This document shows, one piece after another, positions 9,503-64,000 of a stretch of DNA of 64,000 nt; within the stretch, counting starts at the first letter, position 1, and each line of letters starts with the position of its first letter. Position numbers and translations under genes: made by a program. Source of the DNA: a virus; IMG/VR virus record IMGVR_UViG_3300036760_001167, positions 42,511 through 106,510 of that record; one strand, 5' to 3'. The notes below the pieces were generated by a model, which saw nothing but the letters and a program-made list of their open reading frames with translations, was not told where the DNA came from and searched no databases.

Positions 9503-9952
9503 GGCTGCCTCCCTTGCCCTCGTCCTTCCCTATCTTACGGCGTGCGACCTTGGTCCGGGGCCACCGGCTCGGGCATCGGCGACCTCCACCACAGCGTCAC
9601 CGTCCCCTCCCCGCGGTCGTACGTGGCGAGGACGCGCTGGTCGACGGGCTCCTCGCCGAGCGTCGCGCGCCAGCCCTCCTGCCGGGCCCGCGCGCGGCCC
9701 GCCTCCGTCGCGGCGACGGCGTCGGCCTGCGTGCGCACGCCCTCCATCATCGCCCACGGGACGACCTCGCGCCTCGTCTGCGGGTCGCGGCGGCGGCCCA
9801 GCCCGCGCCTCACCGACACCCCGGATCGGCGGCGGTACCGGCGCGGAGGGGATGGACTTCCGGGCGCGCAGAACTCGCGGCCTTGTGCGCGTATATAACC
9901 ATCCTCTTAGAACTGGTACCTTCTGGGGTATCCGCCTTCTCGGGCTGCGGGT

Positions 9953-16681: not shown

Positions 16682-16992
16682 TTGTGTCCTCCTTCTCGCA
16701 GCACCTCTGCCGCGCGCGATCGGCGCCGCTGCCCCAGACCGTTCCAGAGCATCGCGACCACCGCCTGCACCTTCTCCAAGCCGTCGGCCTTCCACTCCCA
16801 CCGCTGGAAGTTGCCGTGTCCCAGGTACGGTCCGTACGGCCCGTACACCTTGCCGATGCCGACCGCCGCGCAGAACCTTCGAACGACGTCCTCATCGTTC
16901 ATGGTCAGGGCGGCGCGCGGAGCGGTTCCGCGCATCAGGGTGAAGCAGCCTTCACCTTCGAACAACCCGCCCGCCCAGCACAGCTCGTTCAT
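16678..16992 (-). CDS. Single-motif LAGLIDADG endonuclease-like protein
   Basis: WAGGLFEGEGCF; 104 aa; weaker GC3 bias than neighbours. Confidence 0.75.
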   Translation of the reverse strand: MNELCWAGGLFEGEGCFTLMRGTAPRAALTMNDEDVVRRFCAAVGIGKVYGPYGPYLGHGNFQRWEWKADGLEKVQAVVAMLWNGLGQRRRSRAAEVLREGGHK

Positions 16993-17825
16993 GCCTTGGC
17001 CGTCTCCGCGTCGGCCTTCGCGCGCTCGGCGAGCGCGGCAGTGATGTCCTCCATCATCGTCACCAGCGTGTTCCGCCAGCCGATGTCCTCGTCGTAGGTC
17101 ACGTCGACCCAGCCGTCGAGGAAGGTGTGCGTCCGGTCCTTCGCCTGCACGTTGTCCACCGGCCGCACGTGCAGCCTGTGCTCGATCGTCCCGCCCGGAC
17201 CCTCCGGCGTCTCGAGCCGCAGCATCCCGACGATGTCGACGAAGCCCGCGAGGGTCTTCGCGAGCTGCCCCTGCACGTACGGGACGAGCTTGACCTCCTC
17301 CTGGCCGCGCTCGGCGGTGCCCGCGACGAACGCGACGCACTGGACCGGCTTCACGACGTTGTACTTCAGGTCGCGCATCGACCGGATGAGCGCCTCGCTC
17401 TTCCGGAACAGCACGCCCCAGTCGTCCCACTCCATCTTCTCGGAGCCGGCGACCTCGTCGACGATCCTCTTCTGCACCTCGCTCAGCGAGTCGACGATCA
17501 CGGAGGTGAACCCGTGCCTCCCGCGGTTCAGCCACTGCGCCGTCTGCCGCACGTCCTCGAGGCCGCGCACGCGGACGACGCACGTGTCCCACGTGCCGTC
17601 GGCCTTGGGCGGCGCCTCCTTCGGGTTCTCCCAGATCACCTTGCGGCCGAAGGTGAACTCGCTGCCTCCCTCGGCGTCGAGCACGAGCCGCGGCGCGGGC
17701 GCGGTCTGCGCCAGCCACGACTTCCCAGTTCCCCAGTCGCCGTGGATCAGGATCGTCAGCGGCCGGAGCGCGGGCGCCGCGGCCGCCCTCCTACGTGCTG
17801 GTGCCTCCGTGCCTGTCGAGGCCAT
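16989..17825 (-). CDS. Sak4-like (AAA_24) recombination ATPase
   Basis: LIHGDWGTGKS, VIVDSLSE, AKDR. Confidence 0.85.
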   Translation of the reverse strand: MASTGTEAPARRRAAAAPALRPLTILIHGDWGTGKSWLAQTAPAPRLVLDAEGGSEFTFGRKVIWENPKEAPPKADGTWDTCVVRVRGLEDVRQTAQWLNRGRHGFTSVIVDSLSEVQKRIVDEVAGSEKMEWDDWGVLFRKSEALIRSMRDLKYNVVKPVQCVAFVAGTAERGQEEVKLVPYVQGQLAKTLAGFVDIVGMLRLETPEGPGGTIEHRLHVRPVDNVQAKDRTHTFLDGWVDVTYDEDIGWRNTLVTMMEDITAALAERAKADAETAKA

Positions 17826-33673: not shown

Positions 33674-33942
33674 TCGGCGGTCCCGCCGGAGTAGGAAACC
33701 ACCGCGGACGGGACGAACTCGACCCCGTAGATTCCATCCTGGAAGCAGTCGAACCTGTCGATCCGCTGAGTGTCCCCGAGCAGGCTGTTCGACAGGACGA
33801 TCCTGAGCCCGCTCGGGCAGTCGACCCTCGTGCCGTCGAGCAGCGTCACGCTGCCCGGGTCGAGGTACCTGTGGGCGCAGGCCGGCAGGATCAGCGCGGC
33901 GCCGATCGCCAGGCCCGCCGCGTACGCCCGCGCGCTCCTCAC
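33670..33942 (-). CDS. Putative lipoprotein
   Basis: Basic/hydrophobic N-terminus with LPAC lipobox. Confidence 0.55.
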   Translation of the reverse strand: MRSARAYAAGLAIGAALILPACAHRYLDPGSVTLLDGTRVDCPSGLRIVLSNSLLGDTQRIDRFDCFQDGIYGVEFVPSAVVSYSGGTAE

Positions 33943-34811
33943 AGCTCCCACCCCATTACCTCCGCGTGCTTCTGGATGTACCACTGCTCGCTCCCGGCGC
34001 TCTTCCGGAGCATGCCGTCGCCGATGTCGCGGGCGCGCTGCGCCGCCTCGGCGAACGGGCGGCCGGCCTTGCCGATGCCGTCGGCGAGCGGGTCCGGCGT
34101 GTCGCCGTCCGGCCGCGCGAGTCTCCCGGTCAGCTCCCAGTGCTCCTCGTACACGTGCAGCGACGACGCGTGGTGGAAGTACGTGCCGACCGGCGCGCCG
34201 AGCGCGCGGGCGAGCGAGTGCTGGAGCTGGTTGAAGAAGAACGCGTCGTATGGGAACCCGTGCCAGGCGTCGTTCGACCGCATCGTCACGTGGAGGTCGA
34301 GCGCGTTGAAGAGGTGGCCCAGCTCCGGGTTGGACGGCCGCAGCATGAACTGGAGCTCCGTCGTGCACGGGTAGTTCTTGACGCCCTCGATCGCGTCGCG
34401 CGCCGGGTCCCAGATCGTCACCACCGCGCGGCGCGAGAACGGGTCCTCGCGCAGGCGGCGCTCGACCATCTCCATCTGGCCCCGGACGCGCGGGCCGTAC
34501 GCGCCGTGGAACGCGCCCTGGTCGGCGAAGTTCCGCATGTTCGCGCTCGCATGGAACAGCGCCTCGGCGTCGGAGTACCCGCCGATCAGCTGGAGGGCCT
34601 CCTCGGCCGCCATCTTCGGGCTGACGCCGCGGCCGGTCCCGACCGGCAGCATCGGCGCGTCCGCCGGGATCACGATGGTCGCGGCCAGCACCTCGCGCGT
34701 GACGGTGCCGCGCGGCTCCGCGCGCCGGCCCTCCGCCATCACGGCCTCGACCACGTCGACGTAGCCGCCCACGAGGTCGTCCAGCCTGAGGAGCATCCCC
34801 TCGTTCGTCAC
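33939..34811 (-). CDS. Thymidylate-synthase-family enzyme, dCMP-type signature
   Basis: AYGPR, SRRAV, YPC catalytic Cys, MRSND...GFPYD, SLHVY. Confidence 0.88.
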   Translation of the reverse strand: MTNEGMLLRLDDLVGGYVDVVEAVMAEGRRAEPRGTVTREVLAATIVIPADAPMLPVGTGRGVSPKMAAEEALQLIGGYSDAEALFHASANMRNFADQGAFHGAYGPRVRGQMEMVERRLREDPFSRRAVVTIWDPARDAIEGVKNYPCTTELQFMLRPSNPELGHLFNALDLHVTMRSNDAWHGFPYDAFFFNQLQHSLARALGAPVGTYFHHASSLHVYEEHWELTGRLARPDGDTPDPLADGIGKAGRPFAEAAQRARDIGDGMLRKSAGSEQWYIQKHAEVMGWEL

Positions 34812-35101
34812 GGCCGCACCGGCTGGACGACGTAGCCCAGCGCGCTCAGGCGGCGCTTCGTCTTCGCGAGCATCTCCGCGCGGACGCGCTCCGCCTTGGC
34901 CTCGTCGACGCCGTCCCCGAAGTAGATCCCCTCGGGGTCGTCGCGGTAGTCCCACACGCCGCCGAGCCGCTCGGTGCCGTCGTCGTTCCGCACGACTTCC
35001 ATCGCGAGGCCGACGGGGTGCAGCACGAGGCGGTTGACCTCCTGCAGGTAGCCACCCTCGCGGAACTCCCGCGCGTCCAGGTACTTGATCTCTCCGGCCA
35101 T
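34808..35101 (-). CDS. Conserved phage hypothetical protein
   Basis: GYLQEVNR.VLHPVGLA...GGVWDYRDDPEG. Confidence 0.65.
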   Translation of the reverse strand: MAGEIKYLDAREFREGGYLQEVNRLVLHPVGLAMEVVRNDDGTERLGGVWDYRDDPEGIYFGDGVDEAKAERVRAEMLAKTKRRLSALGYVVQPVRP

Positions 35102-37512: not shown

Positions 37513-38457
37513 TCAGGCTGCCAGCGCCAGGAGCATCTTGTCCCTGGCCTTGGCGGCGGCGCCGCCGGGCAGCGTGCCCAGCACGCGGCTCTCCTCGGTG
37601 CGCGGGTTGCGCGCCCAGTCGTAGTACTCCCCGACCGCGTTCAGCGCCGCGTACTTGGTGTCGCGGAACGCCTCGAGGTTCGGCGAGTGCAGGTACAGGT
37701 CCACGACCTGCGCCCTCGCCGAGTCGGCCTGCGGCCTGTCGCCGATCACCTTCTCGAGCGCGGTCCGCAGGCGGCGCTCCGTGTACGGCGCCGCGAGCAG
37801 CCGCTCGAGCTCCGCCTGCATCGCGTCGCGGTACTGGAACGTCAGGCCCAGCGCCTCGCGCGCCTCGTGCAGCCGGCCGGCGATCGTCCCGACGTGCCGC
37901 GCGCTCCACCTGTTCGTCGCGCCGCGGACCGCCATGTTCAGGGTGTTCATGCAGACGACGCGGATGGACGTCGGGAGGCACGTGACCGCCTTCATCCCGT
38001 CGTGCGACGTCGTCAGCAGGAGGTACATAGCGTGCTCGTCGCCGCCGACCTCGAAGCCCTCGGTCCGCATCGCCAGGAAGACGGTGCGCCCGCCGCGGAG
38101 CGAGCCCGCGGTCTCGTACTTGCCGTCGCTCGAGTCGACGAGGTTGTCCGCGAACTCGAACGCCTCGCGGTTCTGGAAGGGCGAGTAGTCGGTGCCGACC
38201 ACGCCGAAGGGCCGGCCGTCGGCCTTCCTGACCACCGCGCGCCGGCTCGGGATGTCGATCAGCTCGTACTCCTCGCCCGTCGTCATCGCGTCCGCGCGGC
38301 TGACCGTGAACACGGGGCGCAGCTCCACGTCCCAGTCCAGGCCGCCGAGCTTCAGCGCCTGCTTCGCCGTCATCGCGCCGTCCGCGGCGGTGCCGAGCCC
38401 GTGCCAAGGGACCCCGCGCTCCGCCGTGTAGGCGAGGCTCTCAACCTCTGCTGGCAT
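37513..38457 (-). CDS. DUF932 (phage/plasmid-like TIGR03299) protein
   Basis: PWHGLG, GGLDWDV, ETAGSLRGG, SHDG, RVVCMNT. Confidence 0.88.
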   Translation of the reverse strand: MPAEVESLAYTAERGVPWHGLGTAADGAMTAKQALKLGGLDWDVELRPVFTVSRADAMTTGEEYELIDIPSRRAVVRKADGRPFGVVGTDYSPFQNREAFEFADNLVDSSDGKYETAGSLRGGRTVFLAMRTEGFEVGGDEHAMYLLLTTSHDGMKAVTCLPTSIRVVCMNTLNMAVRGATNRWSARHVGTIAGRLHEAREALGLTFQYRDAMQAELERLLAAPYTERRLRTALEKVIGDRPQADSARAQVVDLYLHSPNLEAFRDTKYAALNAVGEYYDWARNPRTEESRVLGTLPGGAAAKARDKMLLALAA

Positions 38458-39755: not shown

Positions 39756-42059
39756 TCACGACGCGCTCCCCATGATGCTGCCGTCGGCGGGCGGGTCGGC
39801 GACGCGGAAGGCGAGGTTGGCCTCCGCCAGGAACGCGGCGCGGTCGCCCTGGAGCAAGTAGCGGTACGCGTCCGCCTGGTCTCCCGCAGCGGCCGCGGCC
39901 GGCGCGTGGCTGCGGCAGTACGCGAGGCCTCCGGCGGGGTCGCGCGCGGCGCGCGTGCAGCCGGGCGCCCGGCACAGCGGGAGCGGGCTCGCGGCGCGGT
40001 ACGCGCGGACCGCCTCGACGCCGTCGGCGACCTCGTCCCAGTCGGCGAAGGGGTCGTTGTCCACGGTGTCGCCGCGCTGGACCACGACTGGCTCGCCGCA
40101 CTGCGGGCAGCACTGGTCACCGACCGCGGCGTTGGCGTGGGCGCAGCGGTCCGGCCCCCGCCGCAGGAAGCTCTCGGGGATGCCGTATACCTGCGCGATC
40201 TGCGCGGCCGTCAGGCGCCTGGTCCCGCCTGGCAGGAGGACCGACACGCCCGCGCGGGACGCCTCGGTGATCGCCTGCTCGTGGGCCAGGTTCACGTCGA
40301 ATCGCCGCGAGTAGGGGTCGAGCGGCGTGTTGTACTCCGCGGCCGATCGCCAGCGCCCGTCGATGTACCGGCCGGGCTCGCCCGCGTGCGGGTCCGGGAT
40401 GCCCGCCGCCACGAACCAGGGCTCGACCCGCTCGACCCGCGTGGGCCGAGGCCACGGCGTCTCGTTCAGGCCGTCTACCCGCGGCAGGCCGGCCTGCGTC
40501 GGGCACGAGAGCCGGTGCAGCGTCGACTCCGCCGCGCCGCAGCTCGCGCAGGCGGCGGACAGCGCGGCCCGCAGTGCCGTCGGGTCGCTCGTCCACTCCG
40601 TCTGCCCCGGGACGCGAGCCTCGAGCGGGCCCGGCGTCACGAGGCGGCGGAGCGGCGCGTGGCTCTGCCAGGTCGTGATCTCCTGCGCGTCGCTCTCCTG
40701 CCGGAACTCCATCCGCCGCAGGTCGGGCTCGTCGAACTCGACGCCGCGCCAGCGCAGCGCCTGGCGGCCGTCCTCGCCGACGGTCAGCGTGTAGTCCGGC
40801 CCGTCCGGCCGCGCGACCTCGGCCGCCGCCGTCGTGAAGGCGATGTCCGCGGCCGAGTAGTCCGGTACCAAGGGCGCGCCGAGCCCGCGCAGCAGCCGGC
40901 CGAAGCTCTCGTCGTGGATCTGCGCCGTGACGCGCAGCCCGTCCGCGTCGGCCTCGGCGCCGGTCACGCGGCCGACCGCGCGGCTCCTCCGGAGTCGCTC
41001 GTCCGCCTGCACCCGGTAACGCGGCTCGACGCTGTACCTGCGCGGGTCCGGGCGCCAGTCGTTGAGCATCTCGTCCGAGACAGGGACCATCGTCGCGAGG
41101 CGCCGCACGTCGTCCTCGGACGGCTCGCGCGCGAGCGCGCCGATCTGCTCCGTCAGCCGCTCCTGGTCCTCGAGCGCGCGGATCCGGTCGCGCAGCGCGT
41201 CGGCCTCGCGGATCACGTCGTCGACGTCGCCGGTCTCCTCGGGGCTGAGCGCGCCGGGGCGGGAGGAGACGTAGTCGTTCAGCGAGGAGACGCGCCCCTC
41301 GAGCTCGTACCGCAGGTACGCGAGCGGGCTCGCCGAGCGGCCGCGGCCGGCTGCGCCGAGCGGCTCGAAGGTCATGCCGTCCCCGAGCAGCGCGGTCCGC
41401 CCGCGGCCCGGCTCGCCGTAGCTCATGAAGCTGAGGCGCATCTGCCGGTCGATCGCCTCGTCCTCGCGGCGCCGCGTCCGGCGGGCCAGGGCCCGCGCGC
41501 GGCGGTCGCGCAGCCTCCGCACGAGGCCGCGGGACTCCGCGGCCGCAGGGAGCGGCGGGACCGCCGCCGGTAGCGGCGGGACCAGGAGCTCGTCCGACTC
41601 CGGGTAGTAGACCGGCGGGACGACTGCCCGCGCGTCCTGGAGCATGGCGCGGGCCTGGTCGCGCGTGAGCAGCCCGTGGTCCGTCATGAGGCTCCGCCTG
41701 AACGCGTCGCCGTCGACGGAGTACCGCGCGATGAAGTCGGCGTGGCGCCGCGCGGCTCCGAGCTCCGCCGCCGTCTGGACCGCGTCGGCACGCTCGTCCT
41801 CCGCGATCTGCGCCAGGACCTCGTCGCTCGGGCGGGCCTCGCAGGTCATGATGACCTCGACGCCAGCCGCGTTGCCCCACTCGTCGAGCCGGCCGATCGT
41901 CTGCACGTGCTTCCGGCCCTCGAGCTGGAGGCCCTCCGCCAGCTCCGCGCCGATCTTCTCGTTGAGCTCCATCATGACCGCGCGCGTCAGCACCTCGCCG
42001 CGCCGCGCCTCGTCGAGCGTGCGGTCGGGGATGACGACGGAGACCTTGATCTCGCTCAC
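39756..42059 (-). CDS. 767-aa mosaic protein built from short virion/packaging-protein-like motifs (candidate decoy)
   Basis: Intact, codon-biased ORF coupled to neighbours; motif list given in findings. Confidence 0.7.
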   Translation of the reverse strand: MSEIKVSVVIPDRTLDEARRGEVLTRAVMMELNEKIGAELAEGLQLEGRKHVQTIGRLDEWGNAAGVEVIMTCEARPSDEVLAQIAEDERADAVQTAAELGAARRHADFIARYSVDGDAFRRSLMTDHGLLTRDQARAMLQDARAVVPPVYYPESDELLVPPLPAAVPPLPAAAESRGLVRRLRDRRARALARRTRRREDEAIDRQMRLSFMSYGEPGRGRTALLGDGMTFEPLGAAGRGRSASPLAYLRYELEGRVSSLNDYVSSRPGALSPEETGDVDDVIREADALRDRIRALEDQERLTEQIGALAREPSEDDVRRLATMVPVSDEMLNDWRPDPRRYSVEPRYRVQADERLRRSRAVGRVTGAEADADGLRVTAQIHDESFGRLLRGLGAPLVPDYSAADIAFTTAAAEVARPDGPDYTLTVGEDGRQALRWRGVEFDEPDLRRMEFRQESDAQEITTWQSHAPLRRLVTPGPLEARVPGQTEWTSDPTALRAALSAACASCGAAESTLHRLSCPTQAGLPRVDGLNETPWPRPTRVERVEPWFVAAGIPDPHAGEPGRYIDGRWRSAAEYNTPLDPYSRRFDVNLAHEQAITEASRAGVSVLLPGGTRRLTAAQIAQVYGIPESFLRRGPDRCAHANAAVGDQCCPQCGEPVVVQRGDTVDNDPFADWDEVADGVEAVRAYRAASPLPLCRAPGCTRAARDPAGGLAYCRSHAPAAAAAGDQADAYRYLLQGDRAAFLAEANLAFRVADPPADGSIMGSAS

Positions 42060-44182: not shown

Positions 44183-45175
44183 TCACTCGACTCCCTCCCA
44201 CATGTCCGCCTCGACCAGCTCGTCCAGCGCCGGGTCCTCGTCCTTCGCGCGGCCGTAGACGTCGACGCCGTGCAGCATCCACATGTGGTCCACGTGGTCC
44301 TGGCGCTCGTCGAACGTGATGCCGCACCTGAAGCACTTCCAGCTCGTCAGGACCGGCGAGCCCCACGTCTGCGGGTCGCGGCGGGTGCGCGCCTTCGCGC
44401 GGGCCGCGGTTGCGTCGTGCGACGGCAGGACCAGCGTGGTCCGCGGCGCCGCGTAGACGATCGGCTCCGCGACGGGCGCGGGGTGGCCCGCGTGCTTCGC
44501 GGCCGCCGCGACCAGCGCGTCGAACAGCTCCTGCGAGCCGGGCTTCCCGCTCATCTCGGGGTGGAACTGGACGCCCACCATCCAGCCCTCGACCGACTCG
44601 ATGCACTCGACGACGCCGTCCGGCGACCAGCCCGTGGCGACGAACCCGGGCGCGACCTTCGCGACGGCCTGGTGGTGGATGCTGACGACGCTGCGCGTCA
44701 CCTGGCCGAACGCCTTGCGGAGCCGCGAGCCCTTCGCCGATCGCACGGCGTGGTCGTGGCCCAGGTGGTAGCGGCCCGTCTCCGGGTCGCCCTGGATGTG
44801 CTGGTTGAGCGTGCCGCCCATGGTCGCGTTCAGGATCTGCGCGCCGCGGCAGATTCCCAGGATCGGCAGGCCCTTCTCGACGGCGGCCTCGATGCAGAGC
44901 GTCTCGACGAGGTCGCGCAGCTCGTTCGGGTGCTGCGCCTGCTTGTGCGGCTCGGCGCCGTAGAGCGAGGGGCTGATGTCGCTGCCGCCCGTCAGGAGGA
45001 GCGCGTGGTAGCGGCCGCTCCTCAGCGCGGCGATCGCCTTCTCGTCAGCGTAGGCCATGCACTTCGGGTCGCCGCCCGCGCGCCGCACCTTGTGGTCGGC
45101 GTGGCCCAGGACAAGTACCCGCGTCCGCGGCCTCGCGGCCGCCTTCGCCTTCTTCGTCGCCTTCGCGCTGGTCAT
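44183..45175 (-). CDS. Class I glutamine amidotransferase (PuuD/peptidase C26-like) with C-terminal C2H2 finger
   Basis: LTGGSDI, LGICRGAQ, SIHHQAV, GVQFHPE; C..C...H....H. Confidence 0.88.
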   Translation of the reverse strand: MTSAKATKKAKAAARPRTRVLVLGHADHKVRRAGGDPKCMAYADEKAIAALRSGRYHALLLTGGSDISPSLYGAEPHKQAQHPNELRDLVETLCIEAAVEKGLPILGICRGAQILNATMGGTLNQHIQGDPETGRYHLGHDHAVRSAKGSRLRKAFGQVTRSVVSIHHQAVAKVAPGFVATGWSPDGVVECIESVEGWMVGVQFHPEMSGKPGSQELFDALVAAAAKHAGHPAPVAEPIVYAAPRTTLVLPSHDATAARAKARTRRDPQTWGSPVLTSWKCFRCGITFDERQDHVDHMWMLHGVDVYGRAKDEDPALDELVEADMWEGVE

Positions 45176-45429
45176 GCTCCCACTCCTTCTTCGTTGACGA
45201 TGGTGCACAGGCCGCCCTCTTCCAGCTCGCGGAAGAAGCGGTAGGACGAGGCGTCCTCGTGCATCGCGTGCTCGCTCCAGTTCCATGCTCGCTGCGCCAT
45301 CTCCCGGCGGAACGAGCCCTTGTCGCTCTCGTTCCACGACTCCTCGCGGAGCGCGAGCTCCATCTCGCGCCACGTCTCGCCGGTGAGGATGCTGCCGTCG
45401 GCGAAGATAACCGTCTTGGTCGCGGTCAT
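45172..45429 (-). CDS. Hypothetical protein in amidoligase operon
   Basis: RBS, translational coupling, codon bias. Confidence 0.6.
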   Translation of the reverse strand: MTATKTVIFADGSILTGETWREMELALREESWNESDKGSFRREMAQRAWNWSEHAMHEDASSYRFFRELEEGGLCTIVNEEGVGA

Positions 45430-45431
45430 GT

Positions 45432-46433
45432 TCACTCGACCTCCTCGAGCACCGAGCGGGTCGCGTCGAGCTGCGCCTGCAGCGTCGCCACGCGCGCCTC
45501 GACGGTGCCGCGCGTCTCGCCGCTCGTCTCGAACCTGAGCAGCCAGGACGCGTCCTCGGTGGTGAGGCCGAAGGGGATGAGGTCGGTGAGCATCTGGGTG
45601 ACGTCGGTGCCGCTGACGACGGCGCCTGCGAGCGCGCTCGCGAAGAGCGCCTGGCCGAAGCGGACCCACGCCGAGATCTTCTTGAAGTTGGTGGTGCCCG
45701 CGTGCGCCCTGACCTCGACGCTGCCGTGGCGCGGGTAGGCGTGCAGGTTGATGGAGCCGCGCGGGCCGACGGCGCCGATCGCGCGGAGGTCGCGGGCCCT
45801 CAGCAGCGCCGCGGTGCTCTCGCTCGTCCAGGCGGCGCAGTAGCTGTTGTTCCTACGGCTCGGCGCGACCATGCGGAAGATGAGGTCCTGGCGCTCGACG
45901 AACGCGATGACCTGCGCGCGGATCTCGTCGACGCCCTGCGCCCTCATGTCGTGGTGGACGTGCAGGCCGCACGAGCGGTTGACGGTCGCGCCGCAGTCGA
46001 CGAGGGCCTGGCAGACAAGCTGGAGCTGGGCGAAGCCGCTCTCGCCGCGGAGCTTGGGGCTGACCAGCTCGAGGCCGGCGCCGTTGACGCTGCAGTCGGT
46101 CTTGAGCTCCCAGTGCGAGCCGTTCGACGCGCGGTAGCCGTACACGTCGGCGTTGATCCCGACGCGCGCCAGCGCCGCGAGGATCTCGCTGCGCCCTGGG
46201 CCCGTCAGCTCAAGCTCCACGCCGAAGGCGCGGCCCTGGTTGGAGCGCCGCGCACTAGTGGTCGTGGTGCCGCGCTGCGTGCCGTTCGTCCTGTTGTAGC
46301 GGGCGCGGTAGCAGGGCTTGCAGTAGTTGACGAAGCGGCCGCTGGACATGTAGAAGTTCGCGCGCGTCGCTGGAAGCGAGCGCTGGCAGCCGCGGCAGGT
46401 CTTCGTCTCGGTGCTCTCGGTGAAGTCAGGCAC
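45432..46433 (-). CDS. Putative amidoligase (COOH-NH2 ligase, Amidoligase_2) with N-terminal Zn finger
   Basis: FGVELEL, DCSV, ELVSPKL, SCGLHVH, SVEVRAHAGT. Confidence 0.85.
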   Translation of the reverse strand: MPDFTESTETKTCRGCQRSLPATRANFYMSSGRFVNYCKPCYRARYNRTNGTQRGTTTTSARRSNQGRAFGVELELTGPGRSEILAALARVGINADVYGYRASNGSHWELKTDCSVNGAGLELVSPKLRGESGFAQLQLVCQALVDCGATVNRSCGLHVHHDMRAQGVDEIRAQVIAFVERQDLIFRMVAPSRRNNSYCAAWTSESTAALLRARDLRAIGAVGPRGSINLHAYPRHGSVEVRAHAGTTNFKKISAWVRFGQALFASALAGAVVSGTDVTQMLTDLIPFGLTTEDASWLLRFETSGETRGTVEARVATLQAQLDATRSVLEEVE

Positions 46434-48898: not shown

Positions 48899-49183
48899 TC
48901 AGGAGTCCAGTCCGTGGAAGGGGTCTGCTTCGATCTTGGCCTGGAGGGCGGCGGCGGCGGCGGTGCGCTTCGCGTCCTGCGTGCGCTGCCAGTCCGCGGA
49001 GGCCGCTGCCTCGATGCGCGCGACGTGGCCGCTGTTGGTGACGACGCTGCCGTCCTCGCGGAGGAGCTCCCACATAGTGTCGCCCGCGCCCGCCGCGCGC
49101 TCGGTGGGCCGGATGGTGGCAACGCTCTTCGCGGTGTACCCCTTCGGCAACCTCATTCCCGTCTCCTTCTTCGTCGTGGTCAT
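48899..49183 (-). CDS. Hypothetical protein, leaderless
   Basis: ATG 6 nt after GATAAT (49195-49190). Confidence 0.65.
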   Translation of the reverse strand: MTTTKKETGMRLPKGYTAKSVATIRPTERAAGAGDTMWELLREDGSVVTNSGHVARIEAAASADWQRTQDAKRTAAAAALQAKIEADPFHGLDS

Positions 49184-61245: not shown

Positions 61246-62292
61246 CTACACCGGCCGGCCGCGCTCCTCCGCGCGGAGCCGCTCGAGCCGCCCGAAGTAG
61301 GAGATGAACTGCGGGCCAACGCGCTCGGCCGAGAACCGCTCCGCGGACCGGCGCACCGCGGCGCGGTCGAGGGTCCCCGCCAGCCGGACCGCGTCCTCGA
61401 ACTCGCCGAGGGAGCTGCACCTGAAGCCCGAGACCCCGTGCTCGACCGTCTCGGGGAACGCGCCCCAGTCCGTCGTGATCGCGGGCGTGCCGCACAGCTG
61501 GGACTCGACCGCCACCGCGCCGAAGGCCTCGACGTAGAGCGTCGGCATCAGCGTCGCGGCGGCCGCGCCCATCAGGCGCGCCCGCTCGGCCGGCCCGACC
61601 ACCCCGACGAACTCGGCGCCGGCCGGGATGAGCTCCTTCTCGCCGAAGCCGGCCACGACCAGCGGCAGCCCCGTCCGCTTCGCGGTCTCGACCACGACCT
61701 CGAGGCCCTTGCGCCGCGTGAGCCGCCCGACGTAGAGCAGGTACCCGCCGGCGCCGTCGCCGACCGCGAAGTCGCCGAGCTCGAACGCGTACGGGACCAC
61801 CGCGTCGTAGAACGAGCCGTCCGCGTCGTAGGACGTCTGCTGCCAGCCCTGCACGCAGGCGCGCCACGCCTGCGACTTGAACACGCGGTCCCTGACGGCG
61901 GAGCCGGAGTAGCCGATGAACGGCTCCACGGTCTCGAGGTGCCGGACCGCCTCCGCGACCGGCCACTGCGCCCAGCTCGAGATGCAGACCAGGTCGCCGA
62001 GGCCGGACCGCTCCGCGATCGCCGCCGCGGCGCGGCCGTTGAACAGCCTCCAGCCCGGGTGCCCGGGGTCGTACGGCGGGACCCTGTCCGGGAAGTACCG
62101 CGCCTGCTCCTCCCGCGTGATGCACGGGACGAGGGCCGCCCGCGCCTCGGTCTCCTCCCCCGCGTAGAGCGTCACCTCGTGGCCCGCGTCGCTCATCATG
62201 TTGCAGAAGACGCGGACCTCGTTCGTGAACGCGCACCAGCTGAACGCCCTCGTGACCTGCGTGTGGGGCAGCCCCACCACGTGGAACCTCAT
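61246..62292 (-). CDS. GT-B (family 4-like) glycosyltransferase
   Basis: LLYVGRL..RKG, PTLYVEAFG..VES..CGTP.ITTDWGAF.ETV. Confidence 0.9.
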   Translation of the reverse strand: MRFHVVGLPHTQVTRAFSWCAFTNEVRVFCNMMSDAGHEVTLYAGEETEARAALVPCITREEQARYFPDRVPPYDPGHPGWRLFNGRAAAAIAERSGLGDLVCISSWAQWPVAEAVRHLETVEPFIGYSGSAVRDRVFKSQAWRACVQGWQQTSYDADGSFYDAVVPYAFELGDFAVGDGAGGYLLYVGRLTRRKGLEVVVETAKRTGLPLVVAGFGEKELIPAGAEFVGVVGPAERARLMGAAAATLMPTLYVEAFGAVAVESQLCGTPAITTDWGAFPETVEHGVSGFRCSSLGEFEDAVRLAGTLDRAAVRRSAERFSAERVGPQFISYFGRLERLRAEERGRPV

Positions 62293-62318
62293 CGCCTTAC
62301 CTCCGTCCGGTTGTTTGG

Positions 62319-64000
62319 TTATGCGAGCGGGATCTGGACCACCAGCCCGGCGGACCCGGCCGCGGCGTCTTCCGCGTCGGGCGTGACTGACACCTCGATG
62401 GCGATGGACCCATACACGCTGCTGGTGGTTGCCCAAGTGAACGCCGTCAGGTCATCGAGGATGTGGTACGCGACCTCCAGCGTTCCGCAGCCGGCGGCCT
62501 GGTTCAGCTCCGTGGCCTCCACGTGGTTCGCCGGCGCGGTGACGTTCGCGGCAGCGACGATGTTGGCCAGGTACTCGAGGGTGAAGTTCTGCACTCCCGC
62601 GAACGCCGCGAGGGCCGTGACGGTCGGCGTCGTCGTCGCGGTTCCTGCCTTGGTGGTCGCTTGGACTGAGCCGAGCATCGTCGTCCCGAAGGTCCTGACG
62701 TCGGCGATGCACCCAATCTGCGTGCCGCCGAAGGTCCCGGCCGTGATGACCCCGGCGACGGAGGACGCGGCCGTGATCGCGAACACCGTGAGGCGGTTGA
62801 CGTTGCGCGTGCCGTCGCTGTTGAACGTGATGGTCGCGACCTGCGAGTACGCCGCGTTCCACCCGTTCGTCCCGGACATCGCCGGAACGTTCGGCGTCGC
62901 GCCGACCATCTGCGTGTGGATCGCGACGAAGTAGACGGTCCCCGAGACCGGAGTGATGCTGGCTGTCGAGTACGCCGTTCGGTCGACGGGATCGATGATG
63001 GAGCCAGGCGAAGCCATGCTCGCGGCGTGGCGGAATCCGTAGTTGTGGGCTCCCTGGGCTCCGCCGTTCACATTGACCGTTCCGATCGCCGTCAACGTGT
63101 CGTAGAGCAGGACGACGAGCCCGCCGCCGCCGCCGCCGCCTGCTCCGCCTCCGTCCTTGTCCGCGGCGCTCTTGCGGCCGGTCGCGCCGGCGCCGCCGTT
63201 CGCCTGGATGGTCCCGCTCGTGTTGTTGAGGGTCCGGGCCGCGATGACGACCTGGCCTCCGCCGCCGCCTCCGCCCCCGCCCGTCAGCCCCTTGGTCCCC
63301 GCGCCTCCGCCGCCGCCCGCGCCGCCGCCATAGATCTTGATGCTGGCGCCGGACCAGTAGTGGCCGAGCAGCGCGGTGGTCATGTCGTGCAGGGGTCGGG
63401 CGAGGCCGACGGCGCCGCCGCCGCCGATGGCTGCGGCCGGGATGGAGGACCCGCCGCCGCCGCCCGCCCCGCCGAGCGCAGGCTGGTTGCTAGTTCCTAC
63501 GGCGCCCTCGACGGCGCCCCCGCCGCCGAAGTCGATCCCGCTTCCGGCGAACCTGTTGGCGTTCCCCAGTGCGGCTCCGCCGGTCGAGTTGATCCCGTCG
63601 CTCCCGTCCCACTTGATAGTCCCGTTGTTCGTGAGGGTGCCGGTGGCGAAGACTCCCCAGCCCGACGTGATGACGGCGACGCCGGCGTTGACCGTGATGT
63701 TGTGCCCGAACACGTCCCGCGTCATGGTGTAGACCGTGTTCGCGCCGGCGCCCGTCCGCGTCGCGTCCGCCGTCGTAGCTCCGTCCTGCGCGAAGGTCAG
63801 GTCTCCGTCGGAAGCATCGCCGTACGGGTCGAGCCTGCCGCCTCCGGGTCCGCCAGTTCCGCCGGTCCCGCCCGAGCCTCCCGTCCCGCCGGTGCCTCCG
63901 GCGGCCCCCGTTCCGCCCGTCCCGCCCGTGCCGCCGCTGCCTCCGGTGCCGCCCGCGGAGCCGGGACCGCCGGTGCCTCCCGTGCCTCCCGCCCCACCGG
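62319..64000 (-). CDS. Gly-rich tail fibre/minor tail protein (5' end outside window)
   Basis: Open to window edge; GGT collagen-like repeats at ~63840-64000, YGD.SDGD motif, Gly-rich domain. Confidence 0.75.
   Translation of the reverse strand, partial: GGAGGTGGTGGPGSAGGTGGSGGTGGTGGTGAAGGTGGTGGSGGTGGTGGPGGGRLDPYGDASDGDLTFAQDGATTADATRTGAGANTVYTMTRDVFGHNITVNAGVAVITSGWGVFATGTLTNNGTIKWDGSDGINSTGGAALGNANRFAGSGIDFGGGGAVEGAVGTSNQPALGGAGGGGGSSIPAAAIGGGGAVGLARPLHDMTTALLGHYWSGASIKIYGGGAGGGGGAGTKGLTGGGGGGGGGQVVIAARTLNNTSGTIQANGGAGATGRKSAADKDGGGAGGGGGGGLVVLLYDTLTAIGTVNVNGGAQGAHNYGFRHAASMASPGSIIDPVDRTAYSTASITPVSGTVYFVAIHTQMVGATPNVPAMSGTNGWNAAYSQVATITFNSDGTRNVNRLTVFAITAASSVAGVITAGTFGGTQIGCIADVRTFGTTMLGSVQATTKAGTATTTPTVTALAAFAGVQNFTLEYLANIVAAANVTAPANHVEATELNQAAGCGTLEVAYHILDDLTAFTWATTSSVYGSIAIEVSVTPDAEDAAAGSAGLVVQIPLA

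Follow-up and report, generated by a model that had tools for sequence, protein, structure and literature searches.

In Prohead I of phage HK97, the scaffold coiled coils form trimeric towers that contact the groove lying between the portal's wing domains (PMC10275583). A precedent for a capsid-derived interference protein that is used in assembly is Ccm of SaPIbov5, which is encoded by a satellite, replaces the real capsid protein and redirects the capsid assembly of the helper (PMC8569155). Here, a gene is described from a 64,000-nucleotide (nt) stretch of viral DNA taken from IMG/VR record IMGVR_UViG_3300036760_001167; this whole stretch is called the window, and positions are given on it. 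The gene (39756-42059, minus strand) encodes P0001, a protein of 767 amino acids (aa) that, as judged from its sequence, is a mosaic of short segments homologous to capsid protein, portal, major tail protein and possibly prohead protease. The pieces are separated by fast-diverging, low-confidence linkers and by two conserved zinc knuckles. P0001 has a sole homologue, P0003 (777 aa), and matches no described family or functional class in Pfam, PHROGs, NCBIfam, the PDB or the literature.

The phage's own virion genes, which encode the capsid protein, protease, MuF-like protein, portal, tail tube and large terminase (TerL), were located outside the window. Family hidden Markov models (HMMs) for the capsid and the portal were built from 120 database homologues each, and those for the other families were obtained with jackhmmer on open reading frames (ORFs) of 80 related viral loci. 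The positions of the motifs had been fixed before testing by an earlier note, which had worked from the sequence alone and had proposed a string of virion-protein motifs in this gene. Each tested segment was shuffled 3000 times, and segment scores are quoted as P0001 / P0003. The null for the capsid and portal scores of the whole protein consisted of 6000 shuffles per protein (global, within 20-residue windows and within 10-residue windows), while the 80 related loci supplied 7736 six-frame ORFs as the sample of natural sequences and for reciprocal searches.

Over its whole length, P0001 scores 26.8 bits on the capsid HMM and P0003 21.2 bits, with shuffle maxima of 5.9 and 8.3, and the match consists of two collinear pieces, always the same two in reciprocal search. 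The delta-domain-like motif of the earlier note is borne out, since the scaffolding (delta) segment (aa 243-312 tested) reaches 19.8 / 16.3 bits, a level attained by 0/3000 shuffles, and hhalign of P0001/P0003 against the capsid family gives a probability of 76% and an E-value (E) of 2e-5. In the AlphaFold2 (AF2) model this segment is a helical hairpin with a predicted local distance difference test score (pLDDT) of 73-79, and it superposes on 2r9i, a solved 72-residue capsid-protein domain from Corynebacterium, with a Z of 8.2 and a root-mean-square deviation of 2.2 A over 68 residues, a result tied by many unrelated helical hairpins. The neighbouring stretch GRSASPLAYLR, which had been taken for portal, is reassigned, its YLR being the start of the N-terminal capsid match. 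The second piece, RRLATMVPVSDEMLND (aa 310-340 tested), had been called capsid-like and is upheld at 18.5 / 15.3 bits (0/3000 shuffles). Its alignment to aa 315-334 identifies it with the conserved strand after the E-loop plus the start of the spine helix, it shares 10 identities in a 14-residue stretch with the phage's own capsid protein, and phrog_10, a major head protein family, matches aa 317-334 of P0001 with E 0.0065. In P0003, this piece is extended by 13 spine-helix-like residues. The approximately 140 capsid residues that lie between the two pieces are missing from P0001, which does not belong to the HK97-fold capsid proteins (PF05065 / phrog_10), as only positions 7-74 and 214-239 of about 410 in the HMM are matched. 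No capsid family of Pfam or PHROGs matches the whole of P0001, and the HMM on which P0001 scores 26.8 bits gives 603 bits to the capsid protein of the phage itself. When a P0001/P0003 profile is run against the 7736 ORFs, capsid proteins occupy the top dozen-plus places (best E 9.5e-7) and tail tubes come next (E 0.0095 and 0.023); on the capsid profile, non-capsid ORFs of the related phages reach 17.6 bits once and then 6.1.

Portal-like motifs were recovered at two positions in both homologues. Block A, with GRTALLGDGMTFEP (aa 205-240 tested), scores 10.9 / 9.4 bits, and block B, with LTAAQIAQVYGIP (aa 606-640 tested), 5.9 / 5.4 bits, each with 0/3000 shuffles, in agreement with the earlier note. 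Block A is 70% identical between P0001 and P0003, and aa 201-236 match PF04860 (Phage_portal) with E 0.064 in P0001 and 0.0016 in P0003, under the Pfam cut-off; for block B, hhalign against the portal alignment gives E 0.002 at a probability of 13%. A third stretch, HGLLTRDQARAML in block C (aa 120-165 tested), resembles residues 376-404 of the phage's own portal, its score is not significant and its shuffle p is 0.017 / 0.025, so that a weak likeness is what is left of this claim. The blocks are permuted, in the order C, A ... B, and the spacing from A to B, which is about 10-25 residues in real portals, is about 380 in P0001. The whole-protein score of P0001 on the portal HMM is 6.6 bits, reached by 1/6000 shuffles, that of P0003 is weakly significant, and non-portal ORFs of the related phages give 10.7, 7.7 and 5.0 bits (7736 ORFs). 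With 12.9 (P0001) and 18.2 (P0003) bits against a gathering cut-off of 39.1, and with blocks that are short and out of order, neither protein is a member of PF04860. The proposed Walker-A/Sak4-like motif YGEPGRGRT falls inside portal block A and aligns to the portal profile; a Walker A motif requires GxxxxGK[ST], and P0001 reads GEPGRGRT, with Arg in place of the P-loop Lys.

The tail-tube-like motif likewise holds, with 10.4 / 19.4 bits and 0/3000 shuffles for its segment (aa 440-495 tested). On the tail-tube HMM, whole P0001 scores 5.5 bits and whole P0003 14.8, each with 0/1000 shuffles, and non-tail ORFs of the related phages reach at most 7.2 bits. The library family phrog_476, a major tail protein, matches aa 451-482 with E 0.15. 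Only HMM positions 47-80 of the full domain of about 190 aa are matched, which leaves P0001 outside the major tail proteins (phrog_476 / phrog_117). A 94-aa orphan encoded at 48899-49183 on the minus strand is next-best among the non-cognate matches, with 5.2 bits on the tail-tube profile and 6.0 bits on that of P0001/P0003, both at noise level. The motif likened to the HK97 prohead protease has modest support: its segment (aa 340-395 tested) scores 2.4 / 6.5 bits with shuffle p of 0.005 / 0.0003, and the protease-domain HMM has its best local alignment at the catalytic-His strand of both proteins, covering only HMM positions 62-99. At this strand, P0003 reads NH......IGRV...GL.V, while P0001 lacks the His. 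In the whole-protein test, the protease-domain HMM is not significant, feature matches to the S78 protease in the ESM Atlas (0.79) are within the range of noise, and P0001, for which Pfam gives no protease match at E up to 10 and which has no His at the aligned site, is not a member of S78 (PF04586). A whole-protein protease match in P0003 was discarded as an Ala-rich low-complexity artefact whose bias equals its score.

Taken over the capsid pieces, portal blocks A and B and the tail-tube block, the segments match far better than composition-matched shuffles, and P0001 is not collinear with any single globular family. Among the 125 proteins of the phage, P0001 is the best non-cognate match of the tail-tube profile, the second of the non-cognate matches of the capsid profile, and third on the portal profile, where it is outranked only by the portal and by the MuF protein encoded next to it. 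On P0001, no significance is reached by control profiles for three head-tail adaptors, two glycosyltransferases, MuF and TerL. Scans of the whole protein against Pfam, PHROGs, NCBIfam and PDB sequences give nothing above threshold. When the protein is cut into eight segments, weak library matches appear where the motifs had been placed, together with irrelevant ones of similar quality (PspB, E 0.005; PreATP-grasp, E 0.009), and because these are equally good, the E-values of library segments alone prove nothing; as a control, 10 segments taken from five of the phage's other orphan proteins yielded three matches in total, none of them to a structural family. Two candidate origins were rejected. 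Kinship of the pieces with the structural genes at the DNA/RNA level amounts to no more than similarity of codons, in a genome whose codon usage is strongly biased, and a collapsed duplicate of the structural module does not agree with pieces that are out of both gene order and residue order.

The family is very small. A word-indexed search of 5.8 billion clusters returned P0001 itself and P0003, and so did an HMMER profile search run exhaustively on 1.84 billion representatives, which makes one homologue among about 15 billion proteins. No match was found by tblastn of P0001 against 50,697 phage GenBank records, nor were further relatives found in IMG/VR viral contigs and JGI metagenome contigs. 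P0003 is collinear with P0001 over the full length, begins with the same N-terminus and agrees with it at 55% of the aligned columns. The two proteins share 46-70% of residues in the copied blocks, 62-67% in the N-terminal domain and the C-terminal blocks, and 12-21% in the least conserved stretches that separate the blocks, where large insertions and deletions occur. A close relative of the phage is present in public reads (P0005, P0125), with a capsid protein 86% and a portal 89% identical to those of the phage; if P0003 came from that relative, the mosaic gene is evolving much faster than the virion genes.

The gene itself is real. Its guanine-plus-cytosine (GC) content by codon position is 0.77/0.54/0.97, which is typical of coding sequence in a genome of 72% GC and marks it as a true coding sequence; the third-position GC (GC3) of 0.97 is accompanied in the frame plot by a switch of frame exactly at 42059 and at 39756. 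At 42059, the GTG start shares bases with the stop of a 60-aa ORF upstream and is preceded by GGGGGAGG, which resembles a ribosome-binding site (RBS); at the other end, the stop (39756-39758) shares bases with the GTG of a 95-aa ORF downstream. Through these overlaps, the gene is coupled in the GTGA manner to both neighbours and is a member of a chain of translationally coupled small genes. The GC3, the frame switch at 42059, the RBS, the coupling and a homologue with the same N-terminus together establish the gene. The earlier note had the coordinates of the 767-aa ORF right; the gene lies on the minus strand, and the plus-strand translation is interrupted. A scan of the window from 36 to 48 kilobases (kb) for promoters and terminators found none.

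Outside the copied blocks, the N-terminal domain is modelled as a strand, two helices, a long beta-hairpin and a long helix, and aa 1-95 are 67% identical to P0003, among the best-conserved parts. A fold search with this domain gave no clear match (best Z 6.5, with weak dodecin/DUF74-like rows) and an odd excess of HK97-capsid rows at a noise-level Z of 4.4-5.5; no sequence relation to the capsid and portal profiles was found. The full-length AF2 model is poor (pLDDT 41), and a fold search on it matched the helical hairpin only. In the C-terminal region, aa 661-692 and 727-767 are 66% and 62% identical between P0001 and P0003, whereas aa 693-726 between them are 21% identical. This last stretch holds CRAPGC...YCRSH, which had been compared with the N-terminus of HNH endonucleases and is marginal (phrog_144, E 0.022; Zf_WRKY19, E 0.017) and not conserved in P0003. 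The phrog_144 match spans aa 690-740 and covers positions 19-64 of that family, that is, the N-terminal Cys knuckle, at E 0.022 to 0.78, and does not make P0001 an HNH endonuclease. The likeness of aa 727-736 to the terminase nuclease did not hold either, the TerL HMM giving p 0.07-0.09 on aa 715-767 and no significance on the whole protein. The positions of all these features are collected in the table.

Table. Parts of P0001 and selected genes of the window, with the evidence or remarks for each.
Feature	Position	Strand	Evidence or remark
Whole mosaic gene (P0001)	39756..42059	-	767 aa; codon-position GC, frame plot, start/RBS, homologue
N-terminal alpha/beta domain, aa 1-105	41745..42059	-	AF2 pLDDT 88.8
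Weak portal block C, aa 120-162, LTR..RA...PE.DEL.VP	41574..41702	-	Portal HMM 346-380
Portal block A, aa 212-238, GRGRTALLGDGMTFEP	41346..41426	-	In-house portal HMM
Capsid scaffolding (delta) coiled-coil hairpin copy, aa 247-312	41124..41321	-	Capsid HMM 7-74
Capsid strand block, aa 313-335, LAT..PVSDEM..D	41055..41123	-	Capsid HMM 214-239
Prohead-protease-like motif, aa 361-387,.VGRVTG..AD.DGLRVTA	40899..40979	-	Best local alignment of protease-domain HMM
Major tail protein (tail tube) block, aa 445-492, D..EI..WQS..P..R	40584..40727	-	Tail-tube HMM 47-80
Zinc-type motif 1 (C504, C507, H515, C519)	40494..40583	-	Four residues invariant in P0001/P0003
Variable insert, aa 523-612	40224..40493	-	Nearly all absent from P0003; pLDDT mostly <50
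Portal block B, aa 613-633, RRLTAAQIAQVYGIP	40161..40223	-	Portal HMM 268-285
Zinc-type motif 2 (C639, H641, C651, C654)	40080..40160	-	Invariant in both; weak Zn_ribbon_3, E 0.006
C-terminal region	39759..40079	-	Conserved blocks aa 661-692 and 727-767; Cys/His knuckle 693-726 between
DUF932 gene	37513-38457	-	PF06067, E 6e-49; phrog_1221; 1.3 kb downstream of P0001 gene
Sak4-like gene, the phage's real one	16989-17825		Window annotation
'Mini capsid' gene, 244 aa	7517-8251	-	Capsid family HMM 75.5 bits; phrog_10 E 2e-6

The source record measures 106,510 bp, has direct terminal repeats and carries nearly all of its genes on the same strand. Compared with isolated phages, its large terminase reaches no more than 43% identity, with Streptomyces phage Kromp as the nearest, and all large-terminase matches are to actinobacterial phages; the phage is an uncultured, high-GC, actinobacterial one. 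The P0001 gene is one of those in the early/DNA-metabolism arm and lies upstream of the late structural genes; its direct neighbours are orphan genes. Replication, repair and recombination are represented in the window by a primase/helicase, a second helicase, a DNA polymerase, a DNA ligase, exonucleases and the Sak4-like protein, and nucleotide metabolism and DNA modification by ribonucleotide reductase, a thymidylate-synthase-family enzyme, a glutamine amidotransferase, an amidoligase and a glycosyltransferase. The last four enzymes, encoded at 33939-34955, 44183-45373, 45432-46433 and 61246-62436, all on the minus strand, together suggest a pathway of DNA-base hypermodification. Genes of the DUF932 family, one of which lies near the P0001 gene, are frequent in the leading regions of conjugative elements and in accessory regions of phages.

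A second capsid-derived gene is found in the same early arm. The 'mini capsid' matches the capsid HMM only at positions 207-254, the strand and spine helix, and 345-412, the C-terminal strands of the P-domain; it consists of P-domain parts and lacks the delta domain, the E-loop and the A-domain. With this gene in the same arm as that of P0001, capsid-derived genes beyond the structural module are a recurring theme in the phage. In a related IMG/VR phage (L077), a 264-aa non-capsid ORF on the plus strand (frame 2, start near nt 9800), downstream of the capsid gene, carries a lone capsid signature, SH.DYF..NLT..RA, with 16.9 bits at capsid HMM positions 374-393. This signature differs from the blocks of P0001, and from its sequence the ORF looks like another carrier of a capsid fragment. 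Beside the phage's portal gene, outside the window, lies the gene of the MuF-like head protein (C1:26980-29163), whose middle part has weak matches to ADP-ribosyltransferase-like families (phrog_802, phrog_3895), which suggests a putative packaged domain of toxin type.

As to what the pieces do, the reading ranked first, to which we give a probability of roughly 0.35, is that they act as contact mimics of head/tail assembly partners. The copied pieces would dock P0001 onto the partners that are normally touched by those pieces during head or tail assembly, and through its scaffolding hairpin it could become part of scaffold towers or portal rings or cap them. The outcome would be that assembly is regulated or disturbed, be it the phage's own or that of a co-infecting relative, or that P0001 is carried into proheads. 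Assembly mimicry is slightly favoured on the strength of the scaffold hairpin, a copied element already known as a portal-docking module; the identities of 46-70% in the blocks against 12-21% in the least conserved linkers may also reflect selection on the pieces and were counted in its favour, as was the mini capsid, reduced to its P-domain, in the same early arm. Several points weigh against it. The docking is a prediction from likeness in sequence, and most of the pieces, except the hairpin, are single strands or starts of helices, unable to fold alone. The pieces fit their families generally and not the phage's own proteins, as the P0001/P0003 profile scores 25.9 bits on the capsid protein of a relative and 15.3 on the phage's own. 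As HMMs detect conserved blocks only, the impression that the most conserved motifs were copied is partly an effect of ascertainment, and further pieces may be hidden in the remaining regions of P0001. Moreover, the family has just two members, hence selection on it is not quantifiable, and about 40 kb separate the gene from the structural genes downstream of it, so that it sits among orphans and near the DUF932 gene, a position that fits a host-directed or anti-defence role at least equally well.

A patchwork origin, ranked second and possible although rather doubtful, would account for the pieces differently, as scraps of late genes that were stitched into an early gene by illegitimate recombination. 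What the protein does at present, for example nucleic-acid binding or regulation, would then depend on its N-terminal domain, its arginine-rich helices and the pair of zinc knuckles, and would be unrelated to the origin of the scraps. The best-conserved parts of the protein indeed include regions without a virion counterpart (aa 1-95, 661-692 and 727-767 and the zinc motifs), the pieces are out of source order (portal C, A ... B, and the protease-like block after the capsid blocks), and the L077 ORF with its lone capsid motif suggests that such scraps arise readily. Nevertheless, the virion-derived blocks are also among the most conserved parts, with the least conserved linkers at 12-21%, pieces of three or four virion proteins in one chain are hard to obtain by accident, and P0001 stands out on three independent structural profiles. 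A further reading is chance likeness, arising from an Ala/Arg/Asp/Gly-rich composition in a 72% GC genome and a pattern-seeking reader, which would leave no real homology at all and is very improbable. In its favour, the curated libraries give sub-threshold matches only, with PspB and PreATP-grasp equally good, and portal C, the protease block and the HNH-like motif are weak, so that chance may be behind each of these three; however, none of the three kinds of shuffle ever comes near the real capsid score, natural non-capsid ORFs fall from 17.6 to 6.1 bits against the 26.8 of P0001 and the 21.2 of P0003, and reciprocal searches return capsid and tail-tube proteins as the top matches. For the capsid pieces, chance is excluded. 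The earlier note had instead proposed that P0001 is an immune decoy or poisons the assembly of competing phages. In the decoy reading, which is ranked third and seems unlikely, the protein would be made before the late proteins, and its blocks would imitate the virion parts that host sensors recognise and would soak up or jam the sensors without activating them. Capsid, scaffold, prohead-protease and tail proteins have been reviewed as triggers of CBASS, CapRel and other systems (PMC13728456), in line with such a role. The same can be said of the position in the early arm among fast-evolving orphans, near the DUF932 and DNA-modification genes, of the resemblance of the blocks to families broadly, as a broad-range sensor would recognise them, and of the several source proteins represented in one chain. 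However, literature searches gave no published sensor decoy or mimic built from fragments of virion proteins, and TerL, the classic trigger of Avs, is not represented in P0001. Sensors such as Avs, moreover, read folded domains, which pieces of 20-65 residues do not reproduce, and the binding of a sensor usually activates it. The broader version, a natural polyvalent decoy in which one early protein shows capsid, scaffold, portal, tail-tube and perhaps protease segments and neutralises several host sensors before the late proteins are made, is held to be quite improbable; if true, it would represent an undescribed class of phage counter-defence. Should the pieces be mimics, they would constitute a new route by which a phage manipulates the assembly of its own or rival particles, or host sensors of virion proteins, and they would single out which capsid, portal and tail segments are important for contact or recognition. 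The mosaic further indicates that late structural genes can supply raw material for early accessory genes.

Among known systems, SaPIbov5 Ccm is comparable in being a derivative of an HK97-type capsid protein, including the delta domain, that is encoded outside the structural genes it targets (PMC8569155). Ccm, however, is a complete HK97 fold of 355 aa that builds pentons, whereas P0001 has two capsid pieces of about 90 aa, is encoded by a phage and adds portal and tail-tube pieces. In comparison with HK97 gp5, to which the phage's capsid protein family is related with E 1e-54, aa 247-312 of P0001 are homologous to the N-terminal coiled-coil hairpin, the delta domain, of that family; the hairpin of P0001, in contrast to that of gp5, has no capsid shell domain attached, and the helix-turn-strand 'spoke', the N-arm, the E-loop, the A-domain and most of the P-domain are absent. 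As regards the HK97-family portal, the major tail protein and the S78 prohead protease, the blocks of P0001 match the most conserved stretches of these families where the earlier note had placed them, but they comprise 20-45 residues per family and reach no family threshold. In microProteins and in inhibitory or dominant-negative fragments, an isolated piece competes with the whole protein for its partners; such fragments each come from one protein only and are in most cases eukaryotic or engineered, while P0001 is a natural chain of pieces from several proteins. Finally, the polyvalent proteins of phages and conjugative elements reportedly string together whole enzymatic or anti-restriction domains, as Iyer et al. 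2017 are said to have described. P0001 carries scraps of virion proteins instead, and scans of Pfam, PHROGs and NCBIfam detected none of the domains of that class in it; it nevertheless shares with the polyvalent proteins, a class reported to act in conflicts, the features of a long, modular and fast-evolving accessory protein of a mobile element.

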